Below are positions 4,839-59,903 of a DNA stretch of 64,000 bases, in pieces. Location of the stretch: assembly GCA_964558935.1 (NCBI GenBank), contig CAZLFP010000001.1, positions 5,299-69,298 of the forward strand, read 5' to 3'. The stretch comes from an uncultured Gammaproteobacteria bacterium. GTDB lineage: Bacteria > Patescibacteriota > Patescibacteriia > 2-01-FULL-39-33. Numbering within the stretch: the first letter of the stretch is position 1; every line of letters starts with the position of its first letter. Below the pieces are notes generated by a model, which saw only the letters and a program-made list of their open reading frames with translations, searched no databases and had not been told where the DNA came from. The position numbers and the translations under genes are program-made.

Positions 4839-5192
4839 ATGCAAGATATCATTCCACCCGATTTTAATAAAGATCAATTACCGGAAGAAAGTTTGAGAAA
4901 TATCGCTTACTGTCCGGTTTGTCATCATCATTACAACCCGATCCAAGCTAAAGTAGTGGAGGAGGGAAATGGTGCTCATTTGATTTATGTCAAATGTAAT
5001 CGTTGTCAGTCTTCCATTCTGGCTCTAATACTAGCTGGCAGTTTTGGTATTAGTTCAGTCGGTTTAATAACTGATTTAGACAGTTACGAGGTTTCTAAAT
5101 TTTGTCGCTTATCTCCGATTTCCAGTAACGAAGTCATTAAAGTGCATCAAAAATTGGCTGAAACTAAATATATACATCAATTATTTAGCTAA
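4839..5192 (+). CDS. hypothetical protein with CxxC...CxxC zinc-ribbon and a C-terminal hydrophobic segment
   Basis: CPVCHHH...CNRCQ motif pair. No SD; the mRNA may be leaderless. Confidence 0.4.
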   Translation: MQDIIPPDFNKDQLPEESLRNIAYCPVCHHHYNPIQAKVVEEGNGAHLIYVKCNRCQSSILALILAGSFGISSVGLITDLDSYEVSKFCRLSPISSNEVIKVHQKLAETKYIHQLFS

Positions 5193-5216
5193 ATTTAGAT
5201 AAATATTTTTTAATTA

Positions 5217-5241
5217 AGTCACTTGATAAGTTGACTTTTTT
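5217..5241 (+). terminator. intrinsic terminator
   Basis: Hairpin GTCACTT-GATAA-GTTGAC followed by TTTTTT. Confidence 0.5.
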
Positions 5242-5288
5242 AATTAAATTGGCTAAACTGAAATGGATATTAATTATTAGTCTTACTT

Positions 5289-5972
5289 ATGACAATTAAA
5301 TTAAATGCCAAACCACGCACGGTTGTGGGTAAAAAAGTGGCTGATTTAAGACAAGCAGATATTATCCCGGCTGTTTTATATGGTCATGGCGATAAAAATT
5401 TGAATTTAGCTTTGCCTTTCCAAGAATTTAATAAGGTGTTTGCTCAAGCGGGTGAAAATACCATTATTGATCTTGCTGTAGCAGGTACAGACCAGCCGAT
5501 TAAGGTTTTAGTGGCCGATACTCAATTAGATCCAATTAAGAATCAGGTTATACATGTTGATCTCAAAAGAATTAAAATGGATGAGAAGATTACGGCTAAC
5601 ATCAGTATTAATTATATTGGGGAAGCACCAGCGGTTAAAGAGTTGGGCGGTATTTTTGTCCATAATTTGGATGAGCTGGAAATCAAATGTTTGCCTGGAG
5701 ATTTGATTCATGAGGTTGATGTAGATATTTCCACTCTTAAGTCTTTTGATGATATAATTAGTATTGCAGACCTGTCTATACCTGCAACGATTGAAATCAT
5801 AGGCCATGAACCGACAGATGTGGTGGCAACGGTTACTCCTCAAAAAGTGGAAGCCGAACCCGTTGTTGAGACAAGTTCTGCAGAAACTGAAGAACAAGCC
5901 AAGTCAGATGACAAAGACCAAAAAGATCAAGCACAAGATTCAGAAGCTAATTCAAAGCCAAAAGAAGACTAA
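5289..5972 (+). CDS. rplY: 50S ribosomal protein L25 / general stress protein Ctc, with acidic/Lys-rich C-terminal tail
   Basis: L25/Ctc N-terminal and beta-barrel domains (IPAVLYGHG...) followed by a low-complexity tail. Confidence 0.85.
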   Translation: MTIKLNAKPRTVVGKKVADLRQADIIPAVLYGHGDKNLNLALPFQEFNKVFAQAGENTIIDLAVAGTDQPIKVLVADTQLDPIKNQVIHVDLKRIKMDEKITANISINYIGEAPAVKELGGIFVHNLDELEIKCLPGDLIHEVDVDISTLKSFDDIISIADLSIPATIEIIGHEPTDVVATVTPQKVEAEPVVETSSAETEEQAKSDDKDQKDQAQDSEANSKPKED

Positions 5973-7008
5973 GCCAGAGACTGCCAACTGGACTTGGTAT
6001 TTAATAGCTGCCTGCATTGTCTTAGGTATAGTTGGCAGCTTTTTAATGATTTACGTTTGGTTTTACCAGGAAATCAGTAATATTCGTTTTCAGCACATAG
6101 ATACCAGTCAGACCGCACGCAAATTGGATGGAGTGGAAGTTCCGGCTCATCAAGCCAATCTGTTGCCGGTTGCGATTATGATCGAAAACGAAAAAGATTC
6201 CCGTCCACCCGCCGGTTTGGTTGAAGCTAAATTAGTGTATGAAGTGCTGTCTGAGGGAGAAATAACCCGTTTTTTGGCCATCTATGATTTAACGGAAGAT
6301 TTAGATAGAATTGGGCCGGTTCGAAGTGCACGTCCATATTATATCCAGATAGCCAAAGAGTATGATGCTCTGTATGTCCATTGCGGCGGCAGTCCAACCG
6401 CTCTGGCTCAATTAAAGCATGAAGATGAGATTGTGGATTTAAACGAATATTTTGGTTTTAATTCCGGCTATTTTTGGCGAGATAAGGGGAAGCTAGCTCC
6501 CCATAATTTATACACTTCAACGCAACTGCTTCAGTCTGCCAAGGATCATTATCGTTTGACAGATGATGTTTCAGATTTTACTTCTTGGCTGTATAAGTCA
6601 AAACCGGCTCAAACTCAACAGCCGGAACAGAGGATTGTCATTCCATATTCGCAAAGCAGTACTTACCAAGTAACCTGGCAATACCAACCTGAGGTTAATC
6701 TTTACCAAAGATGGCAAGACAACCGTCAGCATACAGATGAGTTGGGCCAAGGCGTAGCAGCAGATAATGTGGTTATTCTATTTGCTCAGACTCAGGTAAT
6801 TGACGAAGTGGGTAGAAGAAAGATTGATCTGGTCGGCAGTGGTAGAGTTCTAGTGTTTAGAGATGGTCAGGTTATTGAAGGTACCTGGCAAAAGTTGGAA
6901 GCTTGGCACAGAACCACTTTTTTTGACAGCAACCAACAGGAGATAGTCTTAAACCAAGGACAAACATGGATTCAGATAGTGCCTCAGGAGTTAGTTGTGA
7001 CGTATTGA
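5908..7008 (+). CDS. DUF3048 (YerB-like) domain protein, membrane-anchored
   Basis: PVAIMIENEKDSRPPAGLVEAKLVYEVLSEGEITRFLAIYD matches the DUF3048 core, preceded by an N-terminal TM. The track ORF starts at 5806 and overlaps rplY; ATG 5908 is my choice of start, and the true start is uncertain. Confidence 0.6.
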   Translation: MTKTKKIKHKIQKLIQSQKKTKPETANWTWYLIAACIVLGIVGSFLMIYVWFYQEISNIRFQHIDTSQTARKLDGVEVPAHQANLLPVAIMIENEKDSRPPAGLVEAKLVYEVLSEGEITRFLAIYDLTEDLDRIGPVRSARPYYIQIAKEYDALYVHCGGSPTALAQLKHEDEIVDLNEYFGFNSGYFWRDKGKLAPHNLYTSTQLLQSAKDHYRLTDDVSDFTSWLYKSKPAQTQQPEQRIVIPYSQSSTYQVTWQYQPEVNLYQRWQDNRQHTDELGQGVAADNVVILFAQTQVIDEVGRRKIDLVGSGRVLVFRDGQVIEGTWQKLEAWHRTTFFDSNQQEIVLNQGQTWIQIVPQELVVTY

Positions 7009-7033
7009 CAATAATTATTGTTTTACATATAAT
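7005..7033 (+). promoter_or_regulatory. sigma70-like promoter
   Basis: TTGACA at 7005-7010, a 17-nt spacer, then TATAAT at 7028-7033. Confidence 0.5.
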
Positions 7034-7039
7034 CTAGGC

Positions 7040-7167
7040 AGTCGCCACTACTTGGGGAAGGGGTGACTTGACACCAGGAGACAAATTTGACTCTCCCACC
7101 ACGCCCATTATGGGCAGTCTCCGTCCCCGGGGCAAGCTCCTCCGACATTAGCTTGCCCCTCTTTTTA
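7040..7167 (+). ncRNA. candidate small RNA 1 (~125 nt) between promoter and terminator
   Basis: GC-rich, hairpin-rich transcript. It ends in the terminator GGGGCAAGCT..AGCTTGCCCC + T-run at 7129-7168. Confidence 0.35.
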
Positions 7168-7202
7168 TTGACAAAATATCTAATCTGTGTTAGTTTGTAG
7201 GT

Positions 7203-7366
7203 ACATGGCCGAAGCCGGTCTTAGTGACCGGCCTAGCGCGATGCCCCGCTATGTGCCAGAGAGTGTTGAGTCCCGGTTGCCAATCCCTGGATTCATAAAC
7301 TCCCCGTGTTAAGGGCAATAGCGGAATTTGGCTTATTGAGGTAGACTAACGTAGTCTACCTTTTTT
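7203..7366 (+). ncRNA. candidate small RNA 2 (~160 nt)
   Basis: Starts after TTGACA at 7168-7173 with a weak -10. Contains the hairpin GCCGGTC..GACCGGC and ends in the terminator GGTAGACT-AACGT-AGTCTACC + TTTTTT at 7340-7367. Confidence 0.3.
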
Positions 7367-7407
7367 GTTTAAATTTAGATAAAAAAATAGCTAATATGGA
7401 TTAACTA

Positions 7408-7436
7408 TTGACAAAATAATGAAAGTGTGTTATACT
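7408..7436 (+). promoter_or_regulatory. sigma70-like promoter
   Basis: TTGACA at 7408-7413, a 17-nt spacer, then TATACT at 7431-7436. Confidence 0.5.
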
Positions 7437-7442
7437 TGTAGT

Positions 7443-7633
7443 TATCATCTGAGAACAAGGAGAAAAAAAATGAAGTTCGCGTATGCCGGTTCAGCAACAG
7501 AGATGTAACTCTGTTGCTACATTCAGAGGGTTTTTGTCCCCGTTTGTACCCCGTCGAGATCAAACGGAGAGCCTAGAGGAAGCAGAGCCTCACCCCACAT
7601 CTTGTGACTAACAATCACAGGTGTGGGGTTTTT
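7443..7633 (+). ncRNA. candidate small RNA 3 / leader-peptide transcript (~190 nt) with a 12-codon ORF at 7470-7508
   Basis: SD AAGGAG lies 8 nt before ATG 7470 (MKFAYAGSATEM*). A 10-bp hairpin follows the stop, and the bidirectional terminator at 7593-7634 is shared with prmC. Confidence 0.35.
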
Positions 7634-8436
7634 AAAATTTTTAAAAAGCGATCTTTTCCGCTTAGGTCTTTTTCCAAGTTGCCATTAGAAAAATATTTAT
7701 TGGCTAACTTCAAAGTTTGTTTGGACAGTAGGGTGTTTATTTCTAACATCACCAGTTGAGGTGTTTTTTTTAATTCTTTAATTTGTTGAAACAGTTTTTC
7801 AAATAATTCTAAATCTCCATAGAGGGCAGACTTGGGTTCAAATTTAATTGAGCCGTGTTTTTCAGTGTTTTTTAAATAGGGGAGATTGGCTAGGATGATG
7901 TCCGGATTTGTTTTGATATTTTTAAGCAAATCTGACTGAATGAATTTTATTTTAACTGTGTTTAATTTTGAATTTTGTTTGGCCACTTTTAAGGCAGAGG
8001 CGTATTTATCTGAAGCAATTACATTGAGGTGAGGTAATAGTTTTTTTAAAGTGATGGCGATACAACCGGAACCGGTACCAATGTCTAAAACAGTGATTTG
8101 TTTTAATTTATTAGCCTTAATGTAATCCATAGCTTTATCCACCAACTCTTCTGTTTCCGGTCTGGGAATTAAGACATGTTTGTTGACTTTAAAAGTTAAG
8201 CCATAGAAGTCTTTTTGATTTAAAATGTAAGCAATGGGTTCTTGCTTATTTCTTCTGTTTAAATGTTTATCGTATCTATCTTGTTGTTGTTGGGTTAACA
8301 CATATTCCGGATGAGAATACAAAAAGCTTTTATCTTTGTTTAAAATGGAAGATAATAAAACCTCAGCATCTAAAAGGGGAGTGGGTGAGGTTTTAAGTCT
8401 TTGATTGCCTTTACTCAGATTATCTTTGATTGTCAT
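7615..8436 (-). CDS. prmC: peptide chain release factor N5-glutamine methyltransferase
   Basis: SAM-binding motif VLDIGTGSGCIAI and NLPY (NPPY-type) motif. It sits immediately downstream of prfA. Confidence 0.85.
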   Translation of the reverse strand: MTIKDNLSKGNQRLKTSPTPLLDAEVLLSSILNKDKSFLYSHPEYVLTQQQQDRYDKHLNRRNKQEPIAYILNQKDFYGLTFKVNKHVLIPRPETEELVDKAMDYIKANKLKQITVLDIGTGSGCIAITLKKLLPHLNVIASDKYASALKVAKQNSKLNTVKIKFIQSDLLKNIKTNPDIILANLPYLKNTEKHGSIKFEPKSALYGDLELFEKLFQQIKELKKTPQLVMLEINTLLSKQTLKLANKYFSNGNLEKDLSGKDRFLKILKTPHL

Positions 8437-17879: not shown

Positions 17880-17908
17880 TTGACAAAAATAATTATTCTT
17901 GATATAAT
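17880..17908 (+). promoter_or_regulatory. sigma70-like promoter
   Basis: TTGACA at 17880-17885, a 17-nt spacer, then TATAAT at 17903-17908. The track ORF start at 17880 coincides with this -35 element. Confidence 0.5.
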
Positions 17909-31671: not shown

Positions 31672-34668
31672 ATGGAAAACTTACTCGACAACCTAAATCC
31701 GGCTCAACAACAGGCTGTGACTCATGACCAGGGACCTTTGTTAATCGTAGCCGGAGCCGGTACCGGTAAAACCACGGTGATTACCAGACGAATCGCTTAC
31801 CTCATAACCCAAGACAAATGCCAACCGGAAGAAATTCTGGCTTTAACTTTTACAGACAAAGCAGCCGGGGAAATGGAAGAAAGAGTGGATCAGCTGTTAC
31901 CATACGGCTATGTGGATTTGTGGATCAACACTTTCCATGCTTTTGCCGAAAGAATCCTGCAAGACCATGCTTTGGAAATCGGACTGCCCAACAATTTTAA
32001 ACTACTGAATGACACCGCTCAATGGTTGCTGGTAAGACAGAACTTAGATAGATTTAATTTAGATTACTATCGTCCTTTGGGTAATCCAACTAAATTTATT
32101 CATGCTTTGTTAAAGCATTTTTCCCGGGCTAAAGATGAGAATATTACACCTCAAGATTATTTGGATTATGTACAAGATTTAAAATTAAACGCAGATAATG
32201 CGGATTATGTTTTCAGTTTTTTAGACAAAAAAAGTCAAAGTAAATTATCTGATCAAGAATTGAAAGAAGTTTTAGCTCAAGAGATTAAAAAGCAAACTGA
32301 AGTGGCTGAAGCTTACCATGTTTACCAGCAATTGTTGTTGGACAATGAAGCTTTGGATTTTGGGGATTTAATTAACTATTGTCTTAAATTATTAAAAGAC
32401 AGAAAAAATCTTTTAGCTCAATACCGAAGTCAATTTAAATATATTTTAGTGGATGAATTTCAAGACACCAATTATGCCCAGTATGAACTGTTAAAACTGT
32501 TGGCTGCTCCGGATAATAATCTAACGGTAGTGGGGGATGATGACCAGTCCATTTACAAGTTCAGAGGGGCTTCCATTTCCAATATTCTGCAGTTTAAAGA
32601 CGATTATCCGGCTTTAACCAAGATCTATCTAACAGATAACTACCGCAGTCAGCAGGAGATTTTAGACTTAGCTTACAACTTTATTCAAAAAAATAATCCA
32701 TATCGTTTAGAAGTTAAGTTACAAGAAGAAACCGGTTTTTCCAAACAGTTAAAATCCCAGGTCGAAGGTCAAGCTGAAATACTGCATTTGCACGGTCAGT
32801 CTCTTACAGATGAGATTAAGTTAGTGATAGAAAAAATAATTGAATTATATAATGCTTCAGATGAGGTTAGCTGGTCAGACTTTGGGATTTTGGTCAGAGC
32901 CAATTCTTCAGCCGATGATTTCTGTTATTTTTTGGATCAGGCTAAGATTCCTTACATGTTTTTAGCTTCCAAGGGATTATTCGTTAAGAGTATAGTGTTA
33001 GACATCTTAGCCTATTTAAGACTCTTGGACGATTACCATGAAAGTTCAGCTGTTTACCGGGTTTTAAGTCTTCCGGTTTGGAACCTTAATTCCAAAGATA
33101 TTATTAATTTAAACTATTGGTCTCGTAGAAAAGGTTGGTCTTTGTTTGAAACTATGAGGCAAGTTCAGACTTTGAATAATATTTCTGAAGCTGGACAGGA
33201 AGTGATTTCCAAGATTTTAGCTTTGGTGGAAAAACATGCTCAACTGGTTAGGGAGAATAAAAAAGCAACTGAGATTATCCAAGTTTTTTTAACTGACAGT
33301 GGGTATTTGAAGGATTTAACCTCAGAAGAGAATGAAGCTAACTTGGAAACTTTAAATTACTTAAATCAGTATTACAAATTTATCCAGAAGTTTGAACAAG
33401 AAACCCCGGATCCGAATTTGAAAAATTTCTTGAATTATATGGAATTGGAATTGGAAGCAGGGGATCAGGGACAATTGTCTCAGAATTTGGAAATCGCCGG
33501 TCCAGATACGGTCAAGATTATGACCATTCATGCGGCAAAAGGTTTGGAATTCAAATATGTTTTCAGTGTTAATTTAGTGGATAAAAGATTTCCTACCATT
33601 AGGCGAGGGGAACCCATTGCTCTACCGGAGAAGCTAGTTAAGGAAATAACACCGGAAGGGGATTTCCATCTGATGGAAGAAAGAAGATTGTTTTATGTGG
33701 CTTTGACTCGGGCTAAGAATGGTTTGTATTTGTCTTCAGCCGAGGATTACGGTGGAGCCAGAAAAAAGAAGATTTCCAAGTTTTTGGTAGAATTGTCTGA
33801 GGTGGATTTTAAATTGGCACCGGAAGTGGAAATTGCCAAAGCCCAATTGTCTTCACCTAAAAAGAAAGAAGCTAAAGTTCAAGATTACACTCCTGTCAAA
33901 AGATTTTCTTTTACCCAATTAAGAGCTTACGAGAATTGTCCTTACCAGTATCGGTTTGCCCATATTCTGAAGATCCCCATTACCGGCAAAGCTCAATTTT
34001 CGTATGGTAAGACTTTGCACAGCACTTTGCAGAAGTTTTTCGATCTGGTTAAGTTGAAGCAGGGCTCACAGCAGATAGACCTGTTTGGATTGGAAAAGGA
34101 AGATCGGTCTGAGGTTACTTCAGATCAGTTGTTAGAGATATATGAGCAAGAATTTGTTGATGATTGGTTTCAGGATCAGAAAGAGAAAGACAGCTATTAT
34201 CTGAAGGGCAAGGAATCCTTAAAGAAATTTTTTGAACATTTTTTAGCCAACAAACCAAAACCTAAATACTTGGAACAACCTTTTAATTTCAGATTGGGCA
34301 AAGACGGCGAATACATTATAAACGGTAAGATAGACAGAATCGATGACATGGATGGTCAGGTTAGAATTGTAGATTACAAAACCGGCACGCCAAAGGAAAA
34401 ACTCTCTGCTGAAGACAAGGAACAGTTGTTGTTGTACCAAATGGCTTCAGAAAGAGTTCTTAAAGAGCCGGTGGGTGAATTGGCTTTTTATTATTTAGAT
34501 AATTCTCAAGAGATTAGCTTTTTGGGTACGGACAAAGATCTGGAAAAGTACGAGCTTAAGATACTTGGGATTATTGAAAAGATTAATTCCGGTCAGTTTC
34601 CGGCCAAGCCTTCTCAGTTATGTGGTTTTTGTGACTTTCGTCGGATTTGTGAATACAGGCAAAGTTAA
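31672..34668 (+). CDS. UvrD/PcrA-type helicase fused to C-terminal PD-(D/E)xK nuclease with Cys cluster (AddA/AddB-like)
   Basis: Walker A AGAGTGKTT and UvrD motifs. C-terminal IVDYKTG nuclease motif plus the Cys cluster C..C...CGFCDFRRIC. Confidence 0.8.
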   Translation: MENLLDNLNPAQQQAVTHDQGPLLIVAGAGTGKTTVITRRIAYLITQDKCQPEEILALTFTDKAAGEMEERVDQLLPYGYVDLWINTFHAFAERILQDHALEIGLPNNFKLLNDTAQWLLVRQNLDRFNLDYYRPLGNPTKFIHALLKHFSRAKDENITPQDYLDYVQDLKLNADNADYVFSFLDKKSQSKLSDQELKEVLAQEIKKQTEVAEAYHVYQQLLLDNEALDFGDLINYCLKLLKDRKNLLAQYRSQFKYILVDEFQDTNYAQYELLKLLAAPDNNLTVVGDDDQSIYKFRGASISNILQFKDDYPALTKIYLTDNYRSQQEILDLAYNFIQKNNPYRLEVKLQEETGFSKQLKSQVEGQAEILHLHGQSLTDEIKLVIEKIIELYNASDEVSWSDFGILVRANSSADDFCYFLDQAKIPYMFLASKGLFVKSIVLDILAYLRLLDDYHESSAVYRVLSLPVWNLNSKDIINLNYWSRRKGWSLFETMRQVQTLNNISEAGQEVISKILALVEKHAQLVRENKKATEIIQVFLTDSGYLKDLTSEENEANLETLNYLNQYYKFIQKFEQETPDPNLKNFLNYMELELEAGDQGQLSQNLEIAGPDTVKIMTIHAAKGLEFKYVFSVNLVDKRFPTIRRGEPIALPEKLVKEITPEGDFHLMEERRLFYVALTRAKNGLYLSSAEDYGGARKKKISKFLVELSEVDFKLAPEVEIAKAQLSSPKKKEAKVQDYTPVKRFSFTQLRAYENCPYQYRFAHILKIPITGKAQFSYGKTLHSTLQKFFDLVKLKQGSQQIDLFGLEKEDRSEVTSDQLLEIYEQEFVDDWFQDQKEKDSYYLKGKESLKKFFEHFLANKPKPKYLEQPFNFRLGKDGEYIINGKIDRIDDMDGQVRIVDYKTGTPKEKLSAEDKEQLLLYQMASERVLKEPVGELAFYYLDNSQEISFLGTDKDLEKYELKILGIIEKINSGQFPAKPSQLCGFCDFRRICEYRQS

Positions 34669-34701
34669 AACATTATTTTAAAGTGTTGTCAAATTATATT
34701 A

Positions 34702-34727
34702 AATAGCTAAAATTAGCTATTTTTTTA
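34702..34727 (+). terminator. intrinsic terminator
   Basis: Stem AATAGCTA / TAGCTATT followed by TTTTTT. Confidence 0.55.
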
Positions 34728-34746
34728 AATTATTATCCTAAAATAC

Positions 34747-34775
34747 TTGACAAAATAATATTAATATGCTATAAT
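34747..34775 (+). promoter_or_regulatory. consensus sigma70 promoter
   Basis: TTGACA at 34747-34752, a 17-nt spacer, then TATAAT at 34770-34775. Confidence 0.55.
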
Positions 34776-34781
34776 GAAATT

Positions 34782-35373
34782 ATTAAAACTTATAACTAGC
34801 TGATTAACTCTGGGGAGAGATGAGTCAAGCTAAGAAACATATTATTTGTAATGTCATAAAATCTCCCCAGACCAGGGAGGTTTTATGTTTTAACCAAGGA
34901 GGGAGAGAGCTGCTGATGCTTGTCAGTTCCAAACTCCTTGTTAGGGCGCTAGCATACAGCTGTATGTTACTGCCCTGAACAAGGGTTTTGGAATCAGTTC
35001 CTTACAATTTGGCTAGTAAACATGTAGAGGAGGGAAGAGTAGACACGGTTTCTGGTTATGCGACTACGGTCGTTTCTACCAGGTCCACTTAACTGCTCTT
35101 GGAATAACCAGGCTATTTAATAATTTTTTTATAAAACAAAGAGCCAGGGTTTTCCGGTTGCCATCCTCTATGTGCTTGCTAGTCAAACTATCTACCCCTA
35201 ACTGATACGAAGGAGGTGATGCTTGTCACTCCTGCTTAGCAGGAAGAACAGGTGAGTACCAACTCCGGTATAAATATCTAATAACAAATATTGACTGGTA
35301 AGTTGGTACTAGCCTTGTTCGTATCAGTTAGAGGTGGCATGGGGCTACTTCTAAAAGCAAGGAAAAGAGAGAG
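34782..35373 (+). ncRNA. candidate large structured non-coding RNA or long structured 5' leader (~590 nt)
   Basis: No ORF over 60 aa. Many compensatory hairpins, a 14-nt perfect inverted repeat at 35198-35211 / 35318-35331 that encloses nested stems, and the motif GATGCTTGTCA duplicated at ~34915 and ~35219. Appears GC-elevated by eye. Confidence 0.4.
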
Positions 35374-35520
35374 ATGCAAAATCAACTCGAGAAATTGGCA
35401 GACCAGATTCTGCTGGAGGCTGGTTTCGCGACCGATGGTCGCGAAAAGAGCGAGGTAGATCCTCGTCAAGAAGCGTTTGAGAAACGTTTCTGGACGAATG
35501 CGGTGGGCACTGCTCGTTAG
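35374..35520 (+). CDS. hypothetical 48-aa protein
   Basis: SD AAGGAAAAGAGAGAG precedes the ATG. GC-elevated. A hairpin GTGGGCAC/GTGCCCAC follows the stop. Confidence 0.35.
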   Translation: MQNQLEKLADQILLEAGFATDGREKSEVDPRQEAFEKRFWTNAVGTAR

Positions 35521-35634
35521 TGGTGCCCACTACTCCTTGGCGAGTTAGACAAGTCAGTTTAACTCGCCTCTCAATTCAAGTTAGTAACTAGCCTTTATTG
35601 GCTTCAATTGGGACTAAATAAAGGAGGAAAGTAT

Positions 35635-35838
35635 ATGTTAGTCCAGTGTTGTATGTGCAAGAAAGTCCGTTCGGGGCAGTCCTGGGACTGGGATCTGCCT
35701 GATGAGCAGCCTCTAAAGGGCAAAATCTCGCACGGCTTTTGCCCGGACTGCTTGGCCCTTGAGATGGCCAAGTTTGATAAGCTTGCCGAAGAAGTTCGGC
35801 AAGCGGCCGCCGATCTCAATGGCGGCATTCTACCGTAA
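35635..35838 (+). CDS. small 4-Cys zinc-ribbon protein (67 aa)
   Basis: SD AAAGGAGGAAAG precedes ATG 35635. Cys pattern CC.C...CPDC. Shares the motif H.(F/I)CP.CL with the ORF at 53207. Confidence 0.45.
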   Translation: MLVQCCMCKKVRSGQSWDWDLPDEQPLKGKISHGFCPDCLALEMAKFDKLAEEVRQAAADLNGGILP

Positions 35839-35971
35839 ACATTAGAGGAGGAAAGATTATGAGATAATCTTTCTTCCTCTCTCTACTTTAGCCGGTATCT
35901 ATTGAGGATATGGGCTGAAGAGGAGGTGAACCGGCAGAGTCAGATCATTGACCTGCCTAAGGGAGATTAAT

Positions 35972-36241
35972 ATGTCGAATATTTTTGATCAGATGGTATC
36001 GGCTATGGGCGCGGTCTGGCTGGTGCAGGCCGTGAAAAGCGGTAGCCGACAAAAAGTTGAACAGGCAATGCGGACACACCGCATTCTCCTCTCTGACAGG
36101 GAGGAGGCCATTCGCTTGCTCAAGCAGCAAGCGAGGCAGCATGAGAACATGCTGCGTCAGAAATTCGGCAACACGCGCGATGACCTCATCGCGCATGCCA
36201 ACGAAAACTTTGCGAGGGTTCTTGAAGAACTCTCGCAATAG
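35972..36241 (+). CDS. hypothetical helical protein (89 aa)
   Basis: SD AAGGGAG precedes ATG 35972. Hairpins follow downstream. Confidence 0.4.
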   Translation: MSNIFDQMVSAMGAVWLVQAVKSGSRQKVEQAMRTHRILLSDREEAIRLLKQQARQHENMLRQKFGNTRDDLIAHANENFARVLEELSQ

Positions 36242-36404
36242 TCATCCGGGAGGAAGGAGTCCAAGAATCAGACTCAACTTCCTCCCATCCCCATTTAAGT
36301 TAAGAATTTGGATTGTTAATTCAAATGGGGAATAATAGATTTTCGTTCCTTTTTATCTCTCCTCCTTTCTTAAAAAAATTATTATTCCCTAAACGAAAAA
36401 ATCG

Positions 36405-36433
36405 GAAGCGTCCCAAGTGGACGCTTTTGATTT
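36405..36433 (+). terminator. intrinsic terminator
   Basis: Stem GAAGCGTCC / GGACGCTTT followed by a T-run. Confidence 0.55.
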
Positions 36434-36450
36434 TGTTGTTGATAACTAGA

Positions 36451-36479
36451 TTGTCAATTAAAAAAGTTATTGCTATAAT
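36451..36479 (+). promoter_or_regulatory. sigma70-like promoter
   Basis: TTGTCA, a 17-nt spacer, then TATAAT at 36474-36479. Confidence 0.5.
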
Positions 36480-36485
36480 TTTTGT

Positions 36486-36623
36486 CATGAGGGAAGGTGA
36501 TAACAGTTGATTTATTACTAACTACATTTCCTAAAATTATTTAGGTTCTCTCTCCCCAGTGTAGTTTAAGCAATAATTCAATTGACTTTCTCTCAATCCC
36601 GCCCATGTGGCGGGATTTTTTTA
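36486..36623 (+). ncRNA. candidate small RNA 5 (~140 nt)
   Basis: Nested hairpins AACTACAT/GTGTAGTT and CCTAAA/TTTAGG. Terminator AATCCCGCC-CATGT-GGCGGGATT + T7 at 36595-36624. Confidence 0.4.
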
Positions 36624-36668
36624 TTTTTCTTTTTATGGTATAATATGATTAATCTAATAAATCACCTT

Positions 36669-48246: not shown

Positions 48247-49098
48247 ATGAAATATCCTGAATTACCAATTTTTAAATCTCGCAGAAAAGTTAGAAAAGAC
48301 TATTTTAAAGGCAGTTACGCTAATCCGTATTTTAAAACAGACCAGCAAATCATACCCAGACAGGGTAGTTTCAATACTAGTTTGTATCTTAAAATTTTAG
48401 CGGTTGCCATTGTCATTTACGTGGTTATCTATAGCGAATTGCCAACAGTCACTACCATTGAGGTCAGCGGTCTGGATCTAATACCGGAACAAGAATTTCA
48501 ACATGTGGTTAACCAAAACTTAAAACATTGGCGCTGGTATTTATTTCCTCAAAGAAACATGATTTTTTTAAGTAAAAAAGCACTCAAGCAGGGGATAGAG
48601 GATAAATATAGTTTAGAGTATTTAACTGTCACTAAAGGTTGGAAAAGTCTGAGTATTAAGCTGAAAGAAAAAATCTCTCATGCCATTGTCTACAACCAGA
48701 ATGAATTTTACTTTGCAGACCAACAGGGTAGGGTAATGCAAGAATTGCCTCAAGAGCAAGTTTCCATCTATTGGGATAGATATCCCATTTTAAATGTTGG
48801 GCAAGGGGAAATCCAGATCGGTCAAGAAGTAGCCACTCCGGATCAGATGACTTTTATGCTGGCTCTGGACCAGGCCATTTTAAACACGAATTTAAAAAAA
48901 CACGGCTATGAGAGGGGAGAGGATGTGAATGAATTAAGACTGGTGTCCAAAGACGGTTGGCGCGCCTATTTTGACATTACTTCAGATTTAAATGTGGCGT
49001 TGGAGAATTTAATCCTGGTGCTCAACGAGAAGATTGAAGATCCCAAAAGAGTCGAATATATTGATCTTAGATTTGGCAATAAAGTTTTCTATAAATAA
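48247..49098 (+). CDS. FtsQ/DivIB-like (single TM + POTRA) cell-division protein candidate
   Basis: A single TM followed by a POTRA-like segment (LPTVTTIEVSGLDLIP...). Start taken at ATG 48247. Confidence 0.45.
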   Translation: MKYPELPIFKSRRKVRKDYFKGSYANPYFKTDQQIIPRQGSFNTSLYLKILAVAIVIYVVIYSELPTVTTIEVSGLDLIPEQEFQHVVNQNLKHWRWYLFPQRNMIFLSKKALKQGIEDKYSLEYLTVTKGWKSLSIKLKEKISHAIVYNQNEFYFADQQGRVMQELPQEQVSIYWDRYPILNVGQGEIQIGQEVATPDQMTFMLALDQAILNTNLKKHGYERGEDVNELRLVSKDGWRAYFDITSDLNVALENLILVLNEKIEDPKRVEYIDLRFGNKVFYK

Positions 49099-49105
49099 AA
49101 AAAAT

Positions 49106-49275
49106 AGCCTGTTCGACAACGGGTCGAACAGGCCGCGGAAGGAGAAAGCGACCAGCGGAAATAGTCGCATCCTAAGGGGGCAAATGGAACCTGCCCATGC
49201 ATGTCACATAGGCAGGTTATGGCGGGATACAGGCTCCGGTGAGGTTCGGAGTCCTGATGAAAAAAACGTCTGACT
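49106..49275 (-). ncRNA. candidate small RNA 6 (~170 nt, minus strand)
   Basis: Minus-strand promoter TTGACA (+49310..49305), a 17-nt spacer, then TATATT (+49287..49282). Hairpins CAGGACUCCG/CGGAGCCUG, CCUGCC/GGCAGG and GCGAC/GUCGC. Terminator CCTGTTCGAC-CCGTT-GTCGAACAGG + T8. Confidence 0.4.
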
Positions 49276-49494
49276 GCTTTCAATATAATACATTTCATAT
49301 ATCTTGTCAAGCAAGAGGGGGGAGAGGGGTATTCCACTCCCTCCAGTTTTAGTTTACCTGGGTTTAATTGAATTAAATTACTACAGATTAAGAAGTCCTT
49401 TGGTAAGCATAAATTGACATGTGGATAACTTATAGGTATAATAAATATAATAACTTCGTATAACACAGGATAAACGCGGTAAACCTATCAATAT

Positions 49495-50451
49495 ATGGAA
49501 AACTCTAAAAAAACCCTGATATCCTACATACCTGACTTTTTAGACTACTGTGAGGTCGAAAAAGGCCTGTCGCCTATCTCTACCCGTAATTACCATAACT
49601 TCCTTAAATTATTCATAGAATGGCTCAAAAATTGCCATTTAGAGGGTCTTAGACCCCATGAACTGACTCCAGACCATATTTGGGATTACAGGCTGTATTT
49701 GAGCCGAAAACAGGATGCTAAGGGTAATTATATTAAAAAGACCACCCAGTCATACTACCTCCGAGCTCTTAGAAATTTATTGAATTTTTTTACGGAAAAA
49801 GATATACCTAGCATACCCTCAGACAAGGTAAAATTACCTAAGTTAACTGAAAGAGATAAAAAGATTAAATTTCTGAAGTATGAGCAAATAAAGAAGCTGC
49901 TAGAGATGCCGGATGTGAAGAGTGAAGCCGGTTTAAGAGATCGATGTGTTTTAGAAGTTCTATTTTCGACCGGTATGCGTGTAGCTGAGTTAACTTCGCT
50001 TAACGTAAATCAGTTTAACTTAACTAACTTATCCACAGATGGTCAGGAATTAAGTATTGTGGGTAAAGGTGGTAGAAGAAGAACAGTTTATTTTTCTGCT
50101 CGTGCTTTAGACTGGTTAGCTAAGTATCTGAAGACCAGAAAAGACCTCTTCCCTCCCCTGTTTATTAACTACCGTAAAAATTCCAATCCGGATGATGATC
50201 ATAGGCTGAGTATTAGAGCTATTGAAGAAAGTGTAAAAAAATACACATCCATGGCTGGTTTGCCGGTGGATGCAACTCCTCATACTCTCAGACACTCCTA
50301 TGCTACAGATCTTTTAGAACAAGGCGCAGATTTAAGGTCTGTGCAGGAATTATTGGGTCATAAAGATATTGGAACTACTCAAGTGTATACACATTTAACC
50401 AACCAGAGGTTAAAGGATGTGTACAAGAAATACCATAGTGGAGATAAATAA
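49495..50451 (+). CDS. tyrosine-type site-specific recombinase (XerC/XerD/integrase family)
   Basis: Catalytic residues R (GMRVAEL), H..R (HTLRHSYAT) and H...Y (LGHKDIGTTQVYTH). Confidence 0.8.
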   Translation: MENSKKTLISYIPDFLDYCEVEKGLSPISTRNYHNFLKLFIEWLKNCHLEGLRPHELTPDHIWDYRLYLSRKQDAKGNYIKKTTQSYYLRALRNLLNFFTEKDIPSIPSDKVKLPKLTERDKKIKFLKYEQIKKLLEMPDVKSEAGLRDRCVLEVLFSTGMRVAELTSLNVNQFNLTNLSTDGQELSIVGKGGRRRTVYFSARALDWLAKYLKTRKDLFPPLFINYRKNSNPDDDHRLSIRAIEESVKKYTSMAGLPVDATPHTLRHSYATDLLEQGADLRSVQELLGHKDIGTTQVYTHLTNQRLKDVYKKYHSGDK

Positions 50452-55053: not shown

Positions 55054-55365
55054 TTAGCAGATGACTCGCATGCCTTCGGGTTTGGAAAAATCTACTCGGT
55101 GAAGCTGGTTCCAGACTACCACGTGCTGTACAATCCCAAGTACAAAAGTGATGGTGATGACTTTTGACTCAGCTGACAGTGATTGAGCCTTAATTTTAGC
55201 TTTGACATTCGAAAAATGCCTGTGCAGCATAACGATTTCACCCGTCGGTTCGAGCTGTTGGCCCATATCTGTTGAGTCAGTCTTGTTTGGAAGAAAGAAG
55301 TTTCTGTCTTCCAGGTAGGTAATGGCCTCTTGGGTCGTAAACGGTTGCACCAGGTTTTTGTCCAT
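55054..55365 (-). CDS. hypothetical protein (103 aa)
   Basis: Strong SD AAGGAGGGAAG precedes the ATG. A bidirectional terminator lies upstream. Confidence 0.4.
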   Translation of the reverse strand: MDKNLVQPFTTQEAITYLEDRNFFLPNKTDSTDMGQQLEPTGEIVMLHRHFSNVKAKIKAQSLSAESKVITITFVLGIVQHVVVWNQLHRVDFSKPEGMRVIC

Positions 55366-55637: not shown

Positions 55638-57176
55638 TCAGACTGCCAATTGGTTGCAGATCAGGCAAATAGTATTCGGCTCTCTGCCAAGAGCATCGGC
55701 AATGTCGTCATTGGTGTTAAACACCAGACTGTCAACACCCAGTTTTTGAGCCATGATCTGAGTTGGAATTTCCCGACCTTGCTCATCTACGGCCGCCAAA
55801 GACTCATCCGGCTTGGTAGACTTGCTGTATGGACAGTAGGACATGAGTTTGGGATTGGAGACTCGGATGTGGATTTCCAGCTTGATTAAGTAATCTGGCT
55901 GGTACTTTTTCTTAACCTTGAGCAGTAAGGAACGAATCTTGGGCACCAAGTTGTTCATCATCTGAGTGCCTCGGACAATGGAATCATCCACGAGCACCAA
56001 ACGAATGGTAATAACCGATGAATCTGGCTCTTCCTGACGCTTGAGATCCAGTAAATTCTGAATGATTTCAGTCGGATCATCTTCAGCCACTCTGAGCTTA
56101 GTGTCAGCCTCTTGATTGCGGATTTGTTGCTGTCCACCAGTAAAGCTGCGCTTGGCTCCCGTGTATTTGATCAGCAATTCATCCAGTAAGGGACAGCGTT
56201 TGACGCGTCCTTGACTGACAGCTTCAATCCAGGCTTGAATGTAGCCAATGGCATGGTAGCGACCCGAATCCGGTACCGGCAGAACAATATCCGGTGTAAA
56301 GCCGGCTGCAATGTCTTTTTCCGCCAATTTGGCGCCCATTCTTTTGCGGAAGGTGGTTACCGGAACGCCGAATACCACCGAACCCGGATCGGCAGTGTAG
56401 ATTAATTCAAAACCGCAGACCTTGCCCGGTCCGGAAATTTGCTTGGCAGTTTTGGCTAAACCATCTTGCAGGCGAATGATTTCACCTGGCAAAATATCTC
56501 TGTACAGTTCAAAGTCCGTGTTGGCAAAGGAGCAGGATTCTGAAGAAGCTGCAAAGGCATGGTCGTTTTTACAAATACCCAGTACAGCCGGTTTCTGACC
56601 GCTGGGTGAATTAGCCAACCATACACTGTCTGATGTTAAAATGGCGCAAAAATAGGCACCTTCAACTTTGTCAGCCAGTCTTTCCAAACCTTGCTGAAAA
56701 TTCTTTTCCAAAGCAATGATTTTAGCCAAAATCGAGATGTCATCATCTCTGTCCAAGGAATGGCCCTGACTGACCAGTTCGGCAATTAAGTCTTCTCTGT
56801 TGAGCACATTGCCGTCAAAACAAATCGCAAATGAACCCAGTTGGGTTCTGGCTTTGTACATGGGTTGACGGGTGCTGTCGCTAATGTGTCCAATGCCATG
56901 CGTGCCGCTAAGTCGATCCAATTTGCCGGCAAAAGCATCTCTGAAGTTGCCTTTATGGGTATGGATGTCTAGACCCAATTCCGGTCTCAATAGATTGGCT
57001 AAAGCCAAGCCGCAGTAATGAGGACCTCGATGGGTCAAATAGTAGGTTTGCAGACTCAGTTGCCAGGGCAGGCGTCTGGCAGTCACTTCTTTGCCGTAGC
57101 GATCTACGGCCAGGACTACCTTCTTCTTCCAAGGGTAATTGTCTGGATCTACACAGATGGCAGTTACACCACTCAT
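55638..57176 (-). CDS. amidophosphoribosyltransferase-like protein (class II glutamine amidotransferase + PRTase) with Ser replacing the N-terminal nucleophile Cys
   Basis: N-terminus MSGVTAICV compared with the PurF MCG(I/V)xGI. PRTase motif VLVDDSIVRGT. The C-terminal Cys residues resemble the Fe-S type. SD AGGAGGG precedes the ATG. Confidence 0.6.
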   Translation of the reverse strand: MSGVTAICVDPDNYPWKKKVVLAVDRYGKEVTARRLPWQLSLQTYYLTHRGPHYCGLALANLLRPELGLDIHTHKGNFRDAFAGKLDRLSGTHGIGHISDSTRQPMYKARTQLGSFAICFDGNVLNREDLIAELVSQGHSLDRDDDISILAKIIALEKNFQQGLERLADKVEGAYFCAILTSDSVWLANSPSGQKPAVLGICKNDHAFAASSESCSFANTDFELYRDILPGEIIRLQDGLAKTAKQISGPGKVCGFELIYTADPGSVVFGVPVTTFRKRMGAKLAEKDIAAGFTPDIVLPVPDSGRYHAIGYIQAWIEAVSQGRVKRCPLLDELLIKYTGAKRSFTGGQQQIRNQEADTKLRVAEDDPTEIIQNLLDLKRQEEPDSSVITIRLVLVDDSIVRGTQMMNNLVPKIRSLLLKVKKKYQPDYLIKLEIHIRVSNPKLMSYCPYSKSTKPDESLAAVDEQGREIPTQIMAQKLGVDSLVFNTNDDIADALGREPNTICLICNQLAV

Positions 57177-57975: not shown

Positions 57976-58644
57976 TTAAGGATTTAAATAGTTAACGGTT
58001 AAAATGGCATCTGTCTTGTCTTGGTCTGGCTGTAAATTGAGATGTCCAAATACGCCCTGTTTCCAAAAACCCAAGTTAATTTCATAGTCGGTAATGTTTT
58101 CCTTGTAATTATAATCTGCCTGCGCTAGCTTGGTTTGGTAGTAGTTTAACAGCTCCGACTGTTGTATGTCCAAATCTTGCCAAGCCAAAGCAATGGTTTG
58201 TGTTTGTTTTAAGCTTTGGTTACTTAAAGCATGTTTGAGATCATCTAAGCTTAGTTGTTGGCTGGAAGTGGCAAAATTATTGTAGGTATTAACCAGTTGG
58301 TAGTTTAAATCGTCTGAAATGGCTTCCAGAAGCGGGTTTAAGATCCAATCCGGCAGATAATTGACCAGCTTGAGGATGGCTTGCTGACTGGTTTGAGTAG
58401 AGGCTTCAATTTGAGCCTGGTCAACTTGGTAAATGGCTAAATCGATGGGAAAATTATGGGGCAGATTGTCCACATGCTGCTTAATGGGAGAAATGGCCAG
58501 TTTCAGGCTGGCCAGTGTAGCAATGCCCAGTAACGTGATTAAAATAATCAGACTTAAGACCAAACCAAAACATGACCGACCGGATTTAGATTTGGTTGGA
58601 CGATCTTTTTGTTCATATTTGACTGAGATTGGATCTAAAGGCAT
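57976..58644 (-). CDS. hypothetical membrane-anchored protein
   Basis: N-terminal TM. Co-directional with the TagA-like gene. Confidence 0.4.
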   Translation of the reverse strand: MPLDPISVKYEQKDRPTKSKSGRSCFGLVLSLIILITLLGIATLASLKLAISPIKQHVDNLPHNFPIDLAIYQVDQAQIEASTQTSQQAILKLVNYLPDWILNPLLEAISDDLNYQLVNTYNNFATSSQQLSLDDLKHALSNQSLKQTQTIALAWQDLDIQQSELLNYYQTKLAQADYNYKENITDYEINLGFWKQGVFGHLNLQPDQDKTDAILTVNYLNP

Positions 58645-58683: not shown

Positions 58684-58712
58684 TTGTAAAAGGTTGACAG
58701 TTATGATGAATA
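58684..58712 (+). promoter_or_regulatory. consensus sigma70 promoter
   Basis: TTGACA at 58684-58689, a 17-nt spacer, then TATAAT at 58707-58712. Confidence 0.5.
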
Positions 58713-58718
58713 ACTGTA

Positions 58719-58998
58719 TAATTTTATTGTGGATGACAGGATGTCATCTACCTTCCCTCCTATGGGCTAACGGGATTCGTCTCGTTAGCCAAGCTATCAA
58801 AGAGCTCAGCTCTTTGTCTCAGATAACAGTCTGACCCTTACCTTGCCTCTGAAACGTTCAGTGGCATGGACTCCGTATGGTTGGGAAGAGTCTAGCATCT
58901 CCTCTTCCCAACCTTCCCCAGCTTCCTCTGCATTGCCTAGCGGCAATGGTCAACCTAGTAGCGAGGATTCACACCGAATCCTCGCTCATTTTTTTTTG
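58719..58998 (+). ncRNA. candidate structured leader/sRNA (~280 nt) ending in a terminator upstream of the radical SAM gene
   Basis: Seven consecutive hairpins, including the 12-bp stem GGTTGGGAAGAG/CTCTTCCCAACC. Terminator GCGAGGATTC-ACACC-GAATCCTCGC + T9 at 58961-58998. Confidence 0.4.
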
Positions 58999-59024
58999 TT
59001 ATTTTTTTATGCTATGATTCAGAT

Positions 59025-59903
59025 ATGCAGCCAGCCAAATTCTATTCCGAGTTAAATTCAGACTGGGTCAAATGCCAGTTATGTCAGCATTATTGCCAGA
59101 TTAAACCCGGTAGTCATGGGCGTTGCCGGGTCAGAGTGAATCGGTCCGGTCAATTATATACTTTGAATTACGGTAAGGTAATTACACAGAGCACGGATCC
59201 AATAGAGAAAAAGCCATTGTATCATTTTTTACCCAATACTCAGACGTATTCGTTAGCTTGTGCCGGGTGTAATTTTACGTGTCGATATTGTCAAAATGCA
59301 GATATTTCCCAGTTTACAACTTCATTAGCTCAGTTCAATGCAACTTTACCTGAGATACCAGCTCAGGATATTGTGGATTTAGCCTTAGTCAATGACTGTC
59401 CGTCGATTGCTTACACATATACCGAACCGACCGTCTATCTGGAATATGCCTGGGAGTGTATGCAATTGGCTCATCAGTCCAATTTAAAGAATGTTTGGGT
59501 ATCTAACGGCTATATGTCTGACTTGGCTCTGCAAGCTATTCTCCCCTATTTGGATGCCATTAATGTGGATTTAAAGTTTTTTCGGGATAAGACGTATTTA
59601 AATATGACAGGTGCTCATCTCCAGCCTGTTTTGGAAACGTTGATGAGGCTTAAGGAAAATGACATACACACTGAAATCACAACTTTGATCATTCCCGGGA
59701 TTAATGATTCAGTTGCAGAAATGACGGATATCGCTAAATTTATTTTTCAAAAATTAGGCCAGTCTACGCCTTGGCATGTCTCAGCTTTTTATCCGACATA
59801 CCAGTTACACAATTTACCTCCGACAGATCCGGAGACGGTATTGAGAGCGCAACAAATCGGTAGGCAAATAGGTCTCAGGCATGTGTATATCGGTAATGTG
59901 TAA
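59025..59903 (+). CDS. radical SAM enzyme, AmmeMemoRadiSam-system AmrS-like (PFL-activase-like)
   Basis: N-terminal C..C..C cluster, CAGCNFTCRYCQN (CxxxCxxC) and DPIEKKPL. Confidence 0.65.
   Translation: MQPAKFYSELNSDWVKCQLCQHYCQIKPGSHGRCRVRVNRSGQLYTLNYGKVITQSTDPIEKKPLYHFLPNTQTYSLACAGCNFTCRYCQNADISQFTTSLAQFNATLPEIPAQDIVDLALVNDCPSIAYTYTEPTVYLEYAWECMQLAHQSNLKNVWVSNGYMSDLALQAILPYLDAINVDLKFFRDKTYLNMTGAHLQPVLETLMRLKENDIHTEITTLIIPGINDSVAEMTDIAKFIFQKLGQSTPWHVSAFYPTYQLHNLPPTDPETVLRAQQIGRQIGLRHVYIGNV

Follow-up and report, generated by a model that had tools for sequence, protein, structure and literature searches.

Introduction

Several small regulatory RNAs (sRNAs) of Firmicutes, among them RoxS, FsrA, RsaE and CsfG, carry unpaired C-rich regions (CRRs) that pair with their targets, including ribosome-binding sites (RBSs) (PMC8216469, PMC6158497). 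Here I describe a candidate RNA gene that shares several of these features, in a 64,000-nucleotide stretch of contig CAZLFP010000001.1 (hereafter the window), where a predicted transcript spanning positions 58729–58997 ends shortly before the gene for the radical SAM enzyme of the AmmeMemoRadiSam system (AmrS). A first reading of this locus (hereafter the original prediction) saw in it a hairpin-rich leader with the layout of a riboswitch or attenuator, and gave an independent sRNA as the alternative. The evidence presented below favours the alternative, since the element possesses its own promoter and terminator, and AmrS its own −10 box. I conclude with moderate confidence that it encodes a stand-alone, probably regulated orphan sRNA, predicted to act in trans through C-rich seeds.

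Patescibacteria (candidate phyla radiation, or CPR, bacteria) combine very small genomes with a limited set of transcription factors. Literature searches returned no described regulatory RNA or sRNA for Patescibacteria (CPR bacteria) or Saccharibacteria, and no link between an RNA and AmmeMemoRadiSam, a system for which I know of no established function. In the Csr/Rsm sponges, which are also built from successive hairpins, GGA motifs are located mainly in the hairpin loops.

A predicted RNA gene with a strong promoter and terminator

The RNA gene, whose elements all lie on the plus strand, begins with a sigma-70-type promoter (TTGACA, a 17-nt spacer and TATAAT, residues 58694–58722) that matches the consensus at 12 of 12 positions. 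A consensus promoter had been correctly recognized in the original prediction, but at 58684–58712, and its true location is 10 nt to the right. Perfect TTGACA-N16–18-TATAAT sites are found seven times within the window (at 7005, 17880, 27127, 34747, 49414, 53140 and 58694, all on the plus strand), against 0.06 expected from shuffled sequences, and are therefore taken as genuine promoters of the host organism. At least five of these (7005, 27127, 34747, 53140 and 58694) precede sRNA-like units or small open reading frames (ORFs) led by a Shine-Dalgarno sequence (SD), and that at 49414 lies upstream of a 318-aa gene at 49495. An ORF listed at 17880 owes its apparent TTG start to the −35 box of the promoter at this position.

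The spacer between the −35 and −10 boxes is filled by an operator-like perfect palindrome (ACAGTTAT and ATAACTGT separated by 5 nt, residues 58697–58717). This suggests a repressor site, and transcription of the RNA gene under repressor control; the gene is therefore probably regulated, as would be expected of a regulatory RNA more than of a housekeeping one. The palindrome is the sole perfect copy in the window, and one other site comes within three mismatches (at 42067, with three). With no second perfect copy within these 64 kb, no regulon can be derived from it. Back-to-back with the RNA promoter, a minus-strand promoter-like site (TTTACA, 16 nt and TAAAAT, with a TG; residues 58663–58690, 10 of 12 positions matching) presumably serves the divergent gene of a 222-aa membrane-anchored protein (57976–58644).

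The predicted 5′ end of the transcript is G58729, 7 nt past the −10 box, and its length is about 269 nt, slightly below the ∼280 nt first proposed for a transcript made from this promoter. The seven successive hairpins of the original prediction (labeled H1 to H7) were all recovered. H1 (58729–58751) possesses a 10-bp stem with one G-U pair and the loop GGA, and is followed by the C-rich linker L1 (CUUCCCUCCUAUG, 58752–58764), which is predicted unpaired (probability >0.7 for residues 58752–58761). In H2 (58765–58790), a UUCG tetraloop is closed by 11 bp, one of which is a G-U pair. A four-hairpin domain (58791–58924), closed by a 5-bp helix between residues 58791–58795 and 58920–58924, then encompasses H3 (58798–58816), H4 (58819–58834), H5 (58841–58869) and H6 (58879–58913), the last of which corresponds to the 12-bp perfect stem reported initially. 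The linkers of this domain, CCCUUA, ACUCCGUAU and UUCCCC, are unpaired in the predicted structure. A second C-rich region (CCUUCCCC AG CUUCCUCUG, 58912–58930), of which UUCCCC and CCUCUG are predicted unpaired, leads to H7 (58931–58948; 7 bp, loop UAGC).

The gene ends in an intrinsic terminator (58960–58997), consisting of an 11-bp stem (58960–58986, six G-C pairs) that closes a loop of 5 nt, and of a tail made up of CA and nine U residues. This hairpin has a predicted energy of −17.9 kcal/mol, and pair probabilities of 0.89–1.0 in the full-length RNA. The strong terminator of the original prediction is thus confirmed, including its distance to AmrS, with 27 nt between the end of the U-run and the ATG (59025). 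The loops of the eight hairpins (H1 to H7 and the terminator) are GGA, UUCG, CUC, AACA, AAC, an 11-nt loop, UAGC and ACACC, and show no common motif.

Folding of the 270-nt RNA gives a minimum free energy (MFE) of −112.0 kcal/mol, compared with −70.05 ± 5.03 kcal/mol for 200 dinucleotide shuffles (z-score of −8.34), none of which folds as well, and the centroid is close to the MFE structure. The minus strand is nearly as well folded (z-score of −7.7), as expected of any set of hairpins. The promoter, the U-tail and the 82 predicted pairs, with three G-U pairs and no A-C mismatch on the plus strand, all point to the plus strand as the transcribed one. No SD-led ORF is found on this strand of the RNA gene; three ORFs of 46, 70 and 46 aa were considered and rejected as coding sequences, as they lack an SD and either begin within the promoter or extend past the terminator. 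The GC content of the region is ∼50%, in a genome of ∼40%.

Start signals of the AmrS gene

The gene downstream (59025–59903, plus strand) encodes an AmmeMemoRadiSam system radical SAM enzyme (TIGR04337, 291.8 bits for a cut-off of 220), in agreement with its original description as AmrS-like. The protein has one match of 100% identity in the NCBI protein database, encoded on a 217-kb contig, while the next relatives are only 59% identical, and nearly all the best-scoring matches with a source name are labelled Patescibacteria group. The exact protein was absent from the contig index searched, and a first scan of genome contigs with AmrS returned relatives from many phyla at ≤54% identity, which were of no use for the RNA. 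The 168 loci used for comparison (labelled with L-numbers) include the contigs of the closest AmrS proteins and 80 metagenome loci, found through alignment of a lineage-specific protein of 450 aa whose gene lies just downstream.

Located outside the RNA gene, an extended −10 box (TGcTATGAT, 59010–59018, plus strand) is separated by 6 nt from the ATG of AmrS. Nine of the 10 orthologous loci inspected possess a −10 box 6–9 nt before the ATG, with or without an upstream RNA, the exception being L098. In the relatives it is 6 nt from the ATG in L081 (TATACT), L086 (TATAAT), L090 (TAGAAT), L093 (TATAGT) and L099 (TAAAAT), and somewhat farther in L085 (TATAAT, 8 nt), L083 and L088 (both TATAAT, 9 nt). 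Because of this position and its recurrence in orthologs, AmrS is most likely transcribed from a promoter of its own, into a leaderless mRNA that begins at A59025 or close to it.

Such an arrangement is common in the window. Among its 51 genes of 150 aa or more, 15 possess a −10-like hexamer 5–10 nt before the start codon, compared with 3.9% of all ATGs, and a strong SD precedes six. The SD-led starts of the window mostly belong to small intergenic ORFs, often with the form GGAGGGA. AmrS has no SD, so that a read-through transcript would offer it an internal, SD-less AUG. Most plausibly, the terminator simply insulates the AmrS promoter from the very strong promoter upstream.

Search for an antiterminator and for known RNA families

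The original prediction called for a search for an alternative antiterminator fold. When the 3′ arm of the terminator is withheld, the best alternative pairs residues 58756–58763 of L1 (CCUCCUAU) with residues 58958–58966 (GUAG-C-GAGG). This single weak helix is long-range and P1-like, encloses H2 to H7 and overlaps the 5′ arm of the terminator, but its energy is −4.5 kcal/mol, against −17.9 kcal/mol for the terminator. Control RNAs, taken from promoter/terminator units of the window and of relatives, gave alternatives of −2.8 to −5.2 kcal/mol in all seven units whose terminator had been placed correctly by the script. The L1 helix is therefore of a kind that chance would provide for any G-rich arm.

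No Rfam 15 family matched at the gathering score anywhere in the window, nor in nine related loci, which bears out the initial remark that no known riboswitch consensus was recognizable. At E ≤ 10, residues 58600–59100 gave only chance-level matches (lowest E-value, 0.27), which fell on the wrong strand or belonged to eukaryotic small nucleolar RNA and microRNA families, and residues 49000–49600 gave nothing meaningful. ARAGORN identified no tRNA or transfer-messenger RNA (tmRNA). A housekeeping RNA (6S, tmRNA, RNase P or signal recognition particle RNA) was rejected on these Rfam and ARAGORN results, and because the ends form no rod and there is no tRNA-like domain.

Searches with the RNA itself were equally negative. 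Neither nhmmer nor blastn-short revealed any similarity in 84, and then all 168, loci; an exact 35-mer scan did not find the RNA in viral contigs, and distant blastn searches found no similar RNA in phage and plasmid collections. A repeat resembling repetitive extragenic palindromes (REPs) or miniature inverted-repeat transposable elements (MITEs) was discarded, as no hairpin has a second copy in the window or in the 168 loci, and tandem interspaced guide RNA (TIGR) arrays were ruled out for lack of direct repeats.

C-rich tracts and their predicted partners

The unpaired nucleotides of the RNA are strongly biased in composition (40 U, 35 C, 20 A and 11 G), while that of the stems is roughly even. 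The single-stranded linkers read CUUCCCUCCU(AUG), CCCUUA, ACUCCGUAU, UUCCCC and CCUCUG. C-rich pyrimidine runs of at least 8 nt occur four times in the 270 nt, compared with 0.86 per kb on this strand as a whole, and only 0.25% of 270-nt segments reach four. L1, the longest of these tracts, is the exact complement of the extended SD AGGAGGGAAG, and is thus the main candidate for a seed.

Potential partners of L1 on either strand of the window were searched with RNAduplex. Apart from the self-match, the four best duplexes have energies of −21 to −25 kcal/mol, for a mean of −5.9 and a standard deviation of 3.1. The best (35030, plus strand) is located inside a cluster of SD-led small ORFs. Two others correspond to RBSs, that of a 103-aa ORF (55375, minus strand, AAGGAGGGAAGAG-ATG) and that of an 83-aa ORF (17569, plus strand, GGGAGGGAAGATT-ATG), and the fourth (36489, plus strand) to the 5′ end of another small transcript. 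The rare SDs of the window frequently have the extended form GGAGGGA (17568, 53198, 53340, 55376 and 57186), which L1 matches better than the canonical CCUCC core alone does.

The region around the best predicted site (34668–36582) is a 1.9-kb 'intergenic' region behind the perfect promoter at 34747–34775, with the strongest local folding signals of the window. It contains several small ORFs with strong GGAGG SDs, and some of the SD and start regions are sequestered in hairpins, such as AGAGGAGGAAAGATTATGAGATAATCTTTCTTCCTCT at residues 35844–35880. Overlapping its end, a promoter/terminator unit (36451–36625, plus strand) encodes an sRNA-like RNA of ∼140 nt (36486–36625, z-score of about −7). 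Its 5′ end, GAGGGAAGGUGA, is complementary to L1 over 10 bp, but is predicted to pair internally with a downstream CU-rich segment; this unit may encode a sponge or a partner RNA, unless the match is mere coincidence.

The 103-aa SD-led ORF (55054–55365) adjoins a gene for a PurF-like amidotransferase (55638–57176, minus strand; weak TIGR01134 match, below the cut-off), which has a strong extended SD, CAGGAGGGAAUA. The PurF-like gene sits between those of GluRS and WecG, where no counterpart was seen in any syntenic relative inspected.

The gap upstream of AmrS in related genomes

In the relatives the gene order is conserved, and reads GluRS, WecG, p222 (minus strand), a gap, AmrS, p464, Memo, p89 (minus strand), Def and Fmt, where p222 is the membrane-anchored protein of about 220 aa. 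The gap itself, from p222 or WecG to AmrS or p464, varies in length between 39 nt and 2.8 kb, with anything from zero to four unrelated units. At least six distinct syntenic loci have AT-rich gaps of 39–250 nt, with no room for such an RNA and no sign of one (L087, 39 nt; L099, 89 nt; L088, 106 nt; L098, 151 nt; L083, 162 nt; L085, 250 nt). GC-rich units bounded by a promoter and a terminator are found in the gaps of L086 (∼840 nt, two units), L093 (582 nt, two) and L081 (1.8 kb, four), and in these three relatives a terminated structured unit lies directly upstream of AmrS. L095 and L100 possess similar RNA units in gaps of ∼550–700 nt, while AmrS itself is missing.

Hairpin-array units resembling the RNA were identified in three of these gaps, at residues 4636–4975 of L086, 6345–6895 of L100 and 5652–5978 of L081. 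That of L086, directly upstream of AmrS, consists of nine serial near-perfect hairpins (z-score of −7.8), and that of L100 is a string of hairpins of ∼550 nt (z-score of −10.9). Both share with the RNA the serial near-perfect hairpins and the G-poor linkers, and in L086 and L081 the terminator likewise ends about 25–35 nt before the AmrS ATG. The position and length class of the three units are the same as those of the RNA, but there is no detectable sequence similarity; they may be fast-diverging homologs, a convergent design or the product of an insertion hot spot. An all-versus-all blastn comparison of the gaps of nine relatives and four units of the window returned only AT-rich or promoter-like similarity. 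Where one genome is represented by duplicate contigs, these are 100% identical, and therefore provide no strain-level covariation.

Several of these loci show further peculiarities. In L081 (identical to L097 and L082), the four promoter/terminator units lie in a gap at residues 4170–6001; one of them encodes a GC-rich protein of 163 aa (4987–5478) that starts with a signal peptide, and two of the 'non-coding' units contain SD-led short ORFs of 27 and 16 codons. L090 has a structured element with an 18-bp long-range stem upstream of AmrS (5834–6017), and, 5 kb from it within that locus (958–1149), a second copy in inverted orientation with 86% identity. This element is repeated and possibly mobile, unlike the RNA described here. 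AmrS is missing from the otherwise conserved block formed by p222, the gap, p464, Memo, Def and Fmt in L095, L100, L089, L091 and L094, so that linkage of the AmmeMemoRadiSam trio is not obligatory within the clade, and none of the loci showed an AMMECR1 gene in this block.

Other structured RNAs in the window

RNAs bounded by a promoter and a terminator, GC-rich and with C-rich single strands, also occur elsewhere in the window (7035–7167 and 49098–49274), as they do at the syntenic site in relatives. One intergenic gap (7005–7640) is filled by three consecutive promoter/terminator units. The first (7035–7167, plus strand) has a perfect promoter, a z-score of about −3.9 and the C-rich tracts CUCUCCCACC and UCUCCGUCCCC; the second (7203–7368, plus strand) is GC-rich and strongly folded. 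The third, from ∼7440, combines a strong SD, a 12-codon ORF (MKFAYAGSATEM), a structured tail and a terminator.

The sRNA-like gene at 49098–49274 (minus strand, within 49098–49310) encodes an RNA of ∼177 nt (z-scores of −6.7 to −7.6), with a promoter reading TTGACA, 17 nt, TATATT and a 12-bp terminator. This RNA, which has no Rfam match, possesses the sequence UUUCUCCUUCCGCGG immediately before the terminator hairpin. The 15-mer is found exactly in L086 (at 4332) and L093 (at 5684), and the 13-mer box with one mismatch in L095 (at 6692), whereas the expectation for an exact 13-mer in the 4 Mb searched is ∼0.06 occurrences. L086 and L093 are relatives at the level of other genera. In all three relatives the box is part of an intergenic unit of the p222–AmrS gap, and the hairpin that comes after it differs in sequence. 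The reading frames of the box also differ, which identifies it as a non-coding motif at the RNA or DNA level.

These candidates (49098–49274 of the window, L086 4240–4572, L093 ∼5580–5860 and L095 ∼6655–6860), hereafter referred to as CU-box sRNAs, are bounded by a promoter and a terminator, GC-rich and well folded (z-scores of −5 to −7.6), and place a single-stranded C/U-rich box directly before a hairpin. A covariance model of box and hairpin (R1) matched L086 and L093 weakly (E of 0.03–0.05); additional matches in L107 and L166 read as coding sequence, and were taken as chance. Alignments of box and hairpin made with MAFFT lacked structural consistency, and were left out of the model. The CU-box sRNAs share an exact 13–15-mer, UUUCUCCUUCCGC(GG), with one mismatch in L095, which the RNA upstream of AmrS does not have. 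Its membership was rejected, as a pattern search allowing up to two substitutions and the R1 model both miss residues 58729–58998. In its place it has the related but different CUUCCCUCCUAUG followed by a hairpin, and the module of a C/U-rich box before a hairpin is shared with the CU-box sRNAs.

Discussion

That the locus encodes an independent, strongly promoted and terminated non-coding unit, and not a leader of AmrS, is well supported in silico by its own promoter and terminator and by the −10 box of AmrS, and I hold it to be probable. A cis-acting leader (riboswitch, attenuator or protein-mediated antitermination), as first proposed, would govern AmrS through regulated read-through of the terminator at 58960–58997. 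The position of that terminator so close to the ATG, and the terminated structured units directly upstream of AmrS in L081, L086 and L093, would suit such a role, and pairing of L1 with residues 58958–58966 in the nascent RNA gives weak evidence for it. However, that helix cannot compete with the terminator and has its equal in the seven controls, while the −10 box before an SD-less AmrS start recurs in orthologs with no RNA upstream. Comparison of the orthologs, suggested at the outset with lack of conservation named as the result that would speak against a leader, revealed short AT-rich gaps or non-homologous units, with no sequence or structure conserved, and L095 and L100 carry similar RNAs at this site although AmrS is absent. 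Together with the lack of any Rfam riboswitch or leader match, this makes a leader very unlikely. An annotation as 'riboswitch of the AmmeMemoRadiSam operon', however tempting, is therefore corrected, and the RNA says nothing about the ligand or regulation of that system.

If the unit is independent, its role has to be sought elsewhere. The RNA could be a protein-binding scaffold or sponge, whose hairpins or pyrimidine-rich linkers titrate RNA-binding proteins or RNases (S1-like or KH-type) with no base pairing. Eight stable near-perfect hairpins are more than a base-pairing sRNA needs, a consensus promoter implies abundance, and the same architecture in the non-homologous units of L086 and L100 suggests selection on architecture over sequence. 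But no motif recurs among the eight loops, the adjacent genes include none for a candidate binding protein, and the sole recurrent feature, the C-rich linkers, fits pairing equally well, so I regard a scaffold as unlikely. The units of this gap are so variable in number, from none to four, so devoid of shared sequence similarity, and in L081 so mixed (they include the GC-rich secreted-protein gene), that the RNA gene might also have no sequence-specific function, and represent fast-evolving filler at an insertion hot spot, a transcribed array of hairpins with no role beyond insulating the divergent and the downstream promoter, or a remnant of acquired GC-rich DNA; its elevated GC content would agree with this. 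Neutral sequence would, however, be unlikely to combine a perfect promoter and terminator with an operator-like palindrome and a z-score of −8.3, the stems are nearly intact, with G-U pairs but no A-C mismatches, and there are no repeat copies as a MITE or REP would leave. I consider this quite unlikely. Finally, the functional RNA could be read from the minus strand, whose fold is almost as good and whose linkers (AGGAGGGAAGG, GGGGAAGG and AGAGGAAG) place many GGA motifs between the hairpins, as a CsrB/RsmZ-like sponge for a CsrA-type protein. This is barely credible: no promoter is found downstream, no U-tract follows the last minus-strand hairpin, three G-U pairs become A-C mismatches, and the GGA motifs are outside the hairpin loops, unlike those of the Csr/Rsm sponges.

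The reading that I prefer is a trans-acting sRNA with C-rich seeds. The RNA, of ∼270 nt, would be transcribed from its own consensus promoter, under the operator-like palindrome, and terminate efficiently at its own intrinsic terminator, separately from the AmrS transcript. Its eight stable hairpins (seven and the terminator) would keep short C/U-rich, G-poor tracts single-stranded (CUUCCCUCCU, CCCUUA, UUCCCC and CCUCU), and these tracts would pair in trans with G-rich RBSs, as those of the Firmicutes CRR sRNAs do. The targets would be the extended SD, AGGAGGGAAG, of the few SD-led, mostly small ORFs, in an organism where many genes appear leaderless, and pairing would block translation or alter mRNA stability. 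Given independence, action in trans on SD-led mRNAs through the C-rich tracts can be put forward only tentatively; I infer expression, trans-action and the identity of the targets from sequence and predicted structure.

Several observations weigh against this reading. The best predicted site, at 35030, is not beside an obvious start codon; the complementarity of a C/U-rich tract to an SD is partly automatic, and the scan covered 64 kb of the genome. The G-poor linkers could have been selected simply against mispairing of the hairpins, and a number of near-perfect hairpins in excess of what base pairing requires hints at another or additional role. No homolog was found in the 168 loci or in the viral, phage and plasmid sets, so that the RNA is an orphan, and these sets provide neither covariation nor evidence of purifying selection on the C-rich tracts.

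A broader possibility, which I regard as speculative and rather doubtful, is that the RNA belongs to an undescribed class in Patescibacteria, of abundant hairpin-array RNAs, bounded by a promoter and a terminator, whose sequences would diverge beyond alignment while one design is retained, that of serial perfect hairpins with C-rich tracts resembling an anti-Shine-Dalgarno sequence. Such RNAs would act as global regulators of the few SD-led genes, mostly for small proteins, in genomes whose mRNAs are for the most part leaderless or SD-less. If such a class is real, a large share of regulation in minimal, transcription-factor-poor symbionts would fall to sRNAs, and if the C-rich tracts target the extended SD of the few SD-led ORFs, this would point to a simple global circuit of translational control. 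The locus is in any case a clean and experimentally tractable sRNA candidate, in a phylum for which the literature searches returned no described sRNA.

Compared with described systems, the RNA resembles terminating riboswitches and attenuators in being structured and ending in an intrinsic terminator immediately before a gene; it differs from these in the −10 box between terminator and ATG, and in having no conserved aptamer, no competitive antiterminator and no family match. With the sponges CsrB, RsmZ and CrcZ it shares its length, the many successive hairpins with a short recurrent motif between them, and a probable abundance. However, the motif on the plus strand is C/U-rich, rather than GGA or A-rich, the loops have no common motif and no partner protein was identified; GGA is found only in the H1 loop on this strand, and not in the multiple copies of the CsrB/RsmZ type.

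The Firmicutes CRR sRNAs (RsaE/RoxS, FsrA and CsfG) offer the closer parallel. Compared with these, the RNA has over twice the length and eight hairpins instead of two to four, belongs to a Patescibacteria-like phylum, and shows no homology to them in sequence or structure and no Rfam match. Like them, it is a stand-alone gene with a promoter of the housekeeping-sigma type and an intrinsic terminator, predicted in silico to yield a short non-coding transcript. It also possesses several unpaired C-rich tracts flanked by hairpins and complementary to G-rich RBSs, with at least two accessible C-rich motifs. The resemblance is thus one of functional analogy, rather than of membership in that group.

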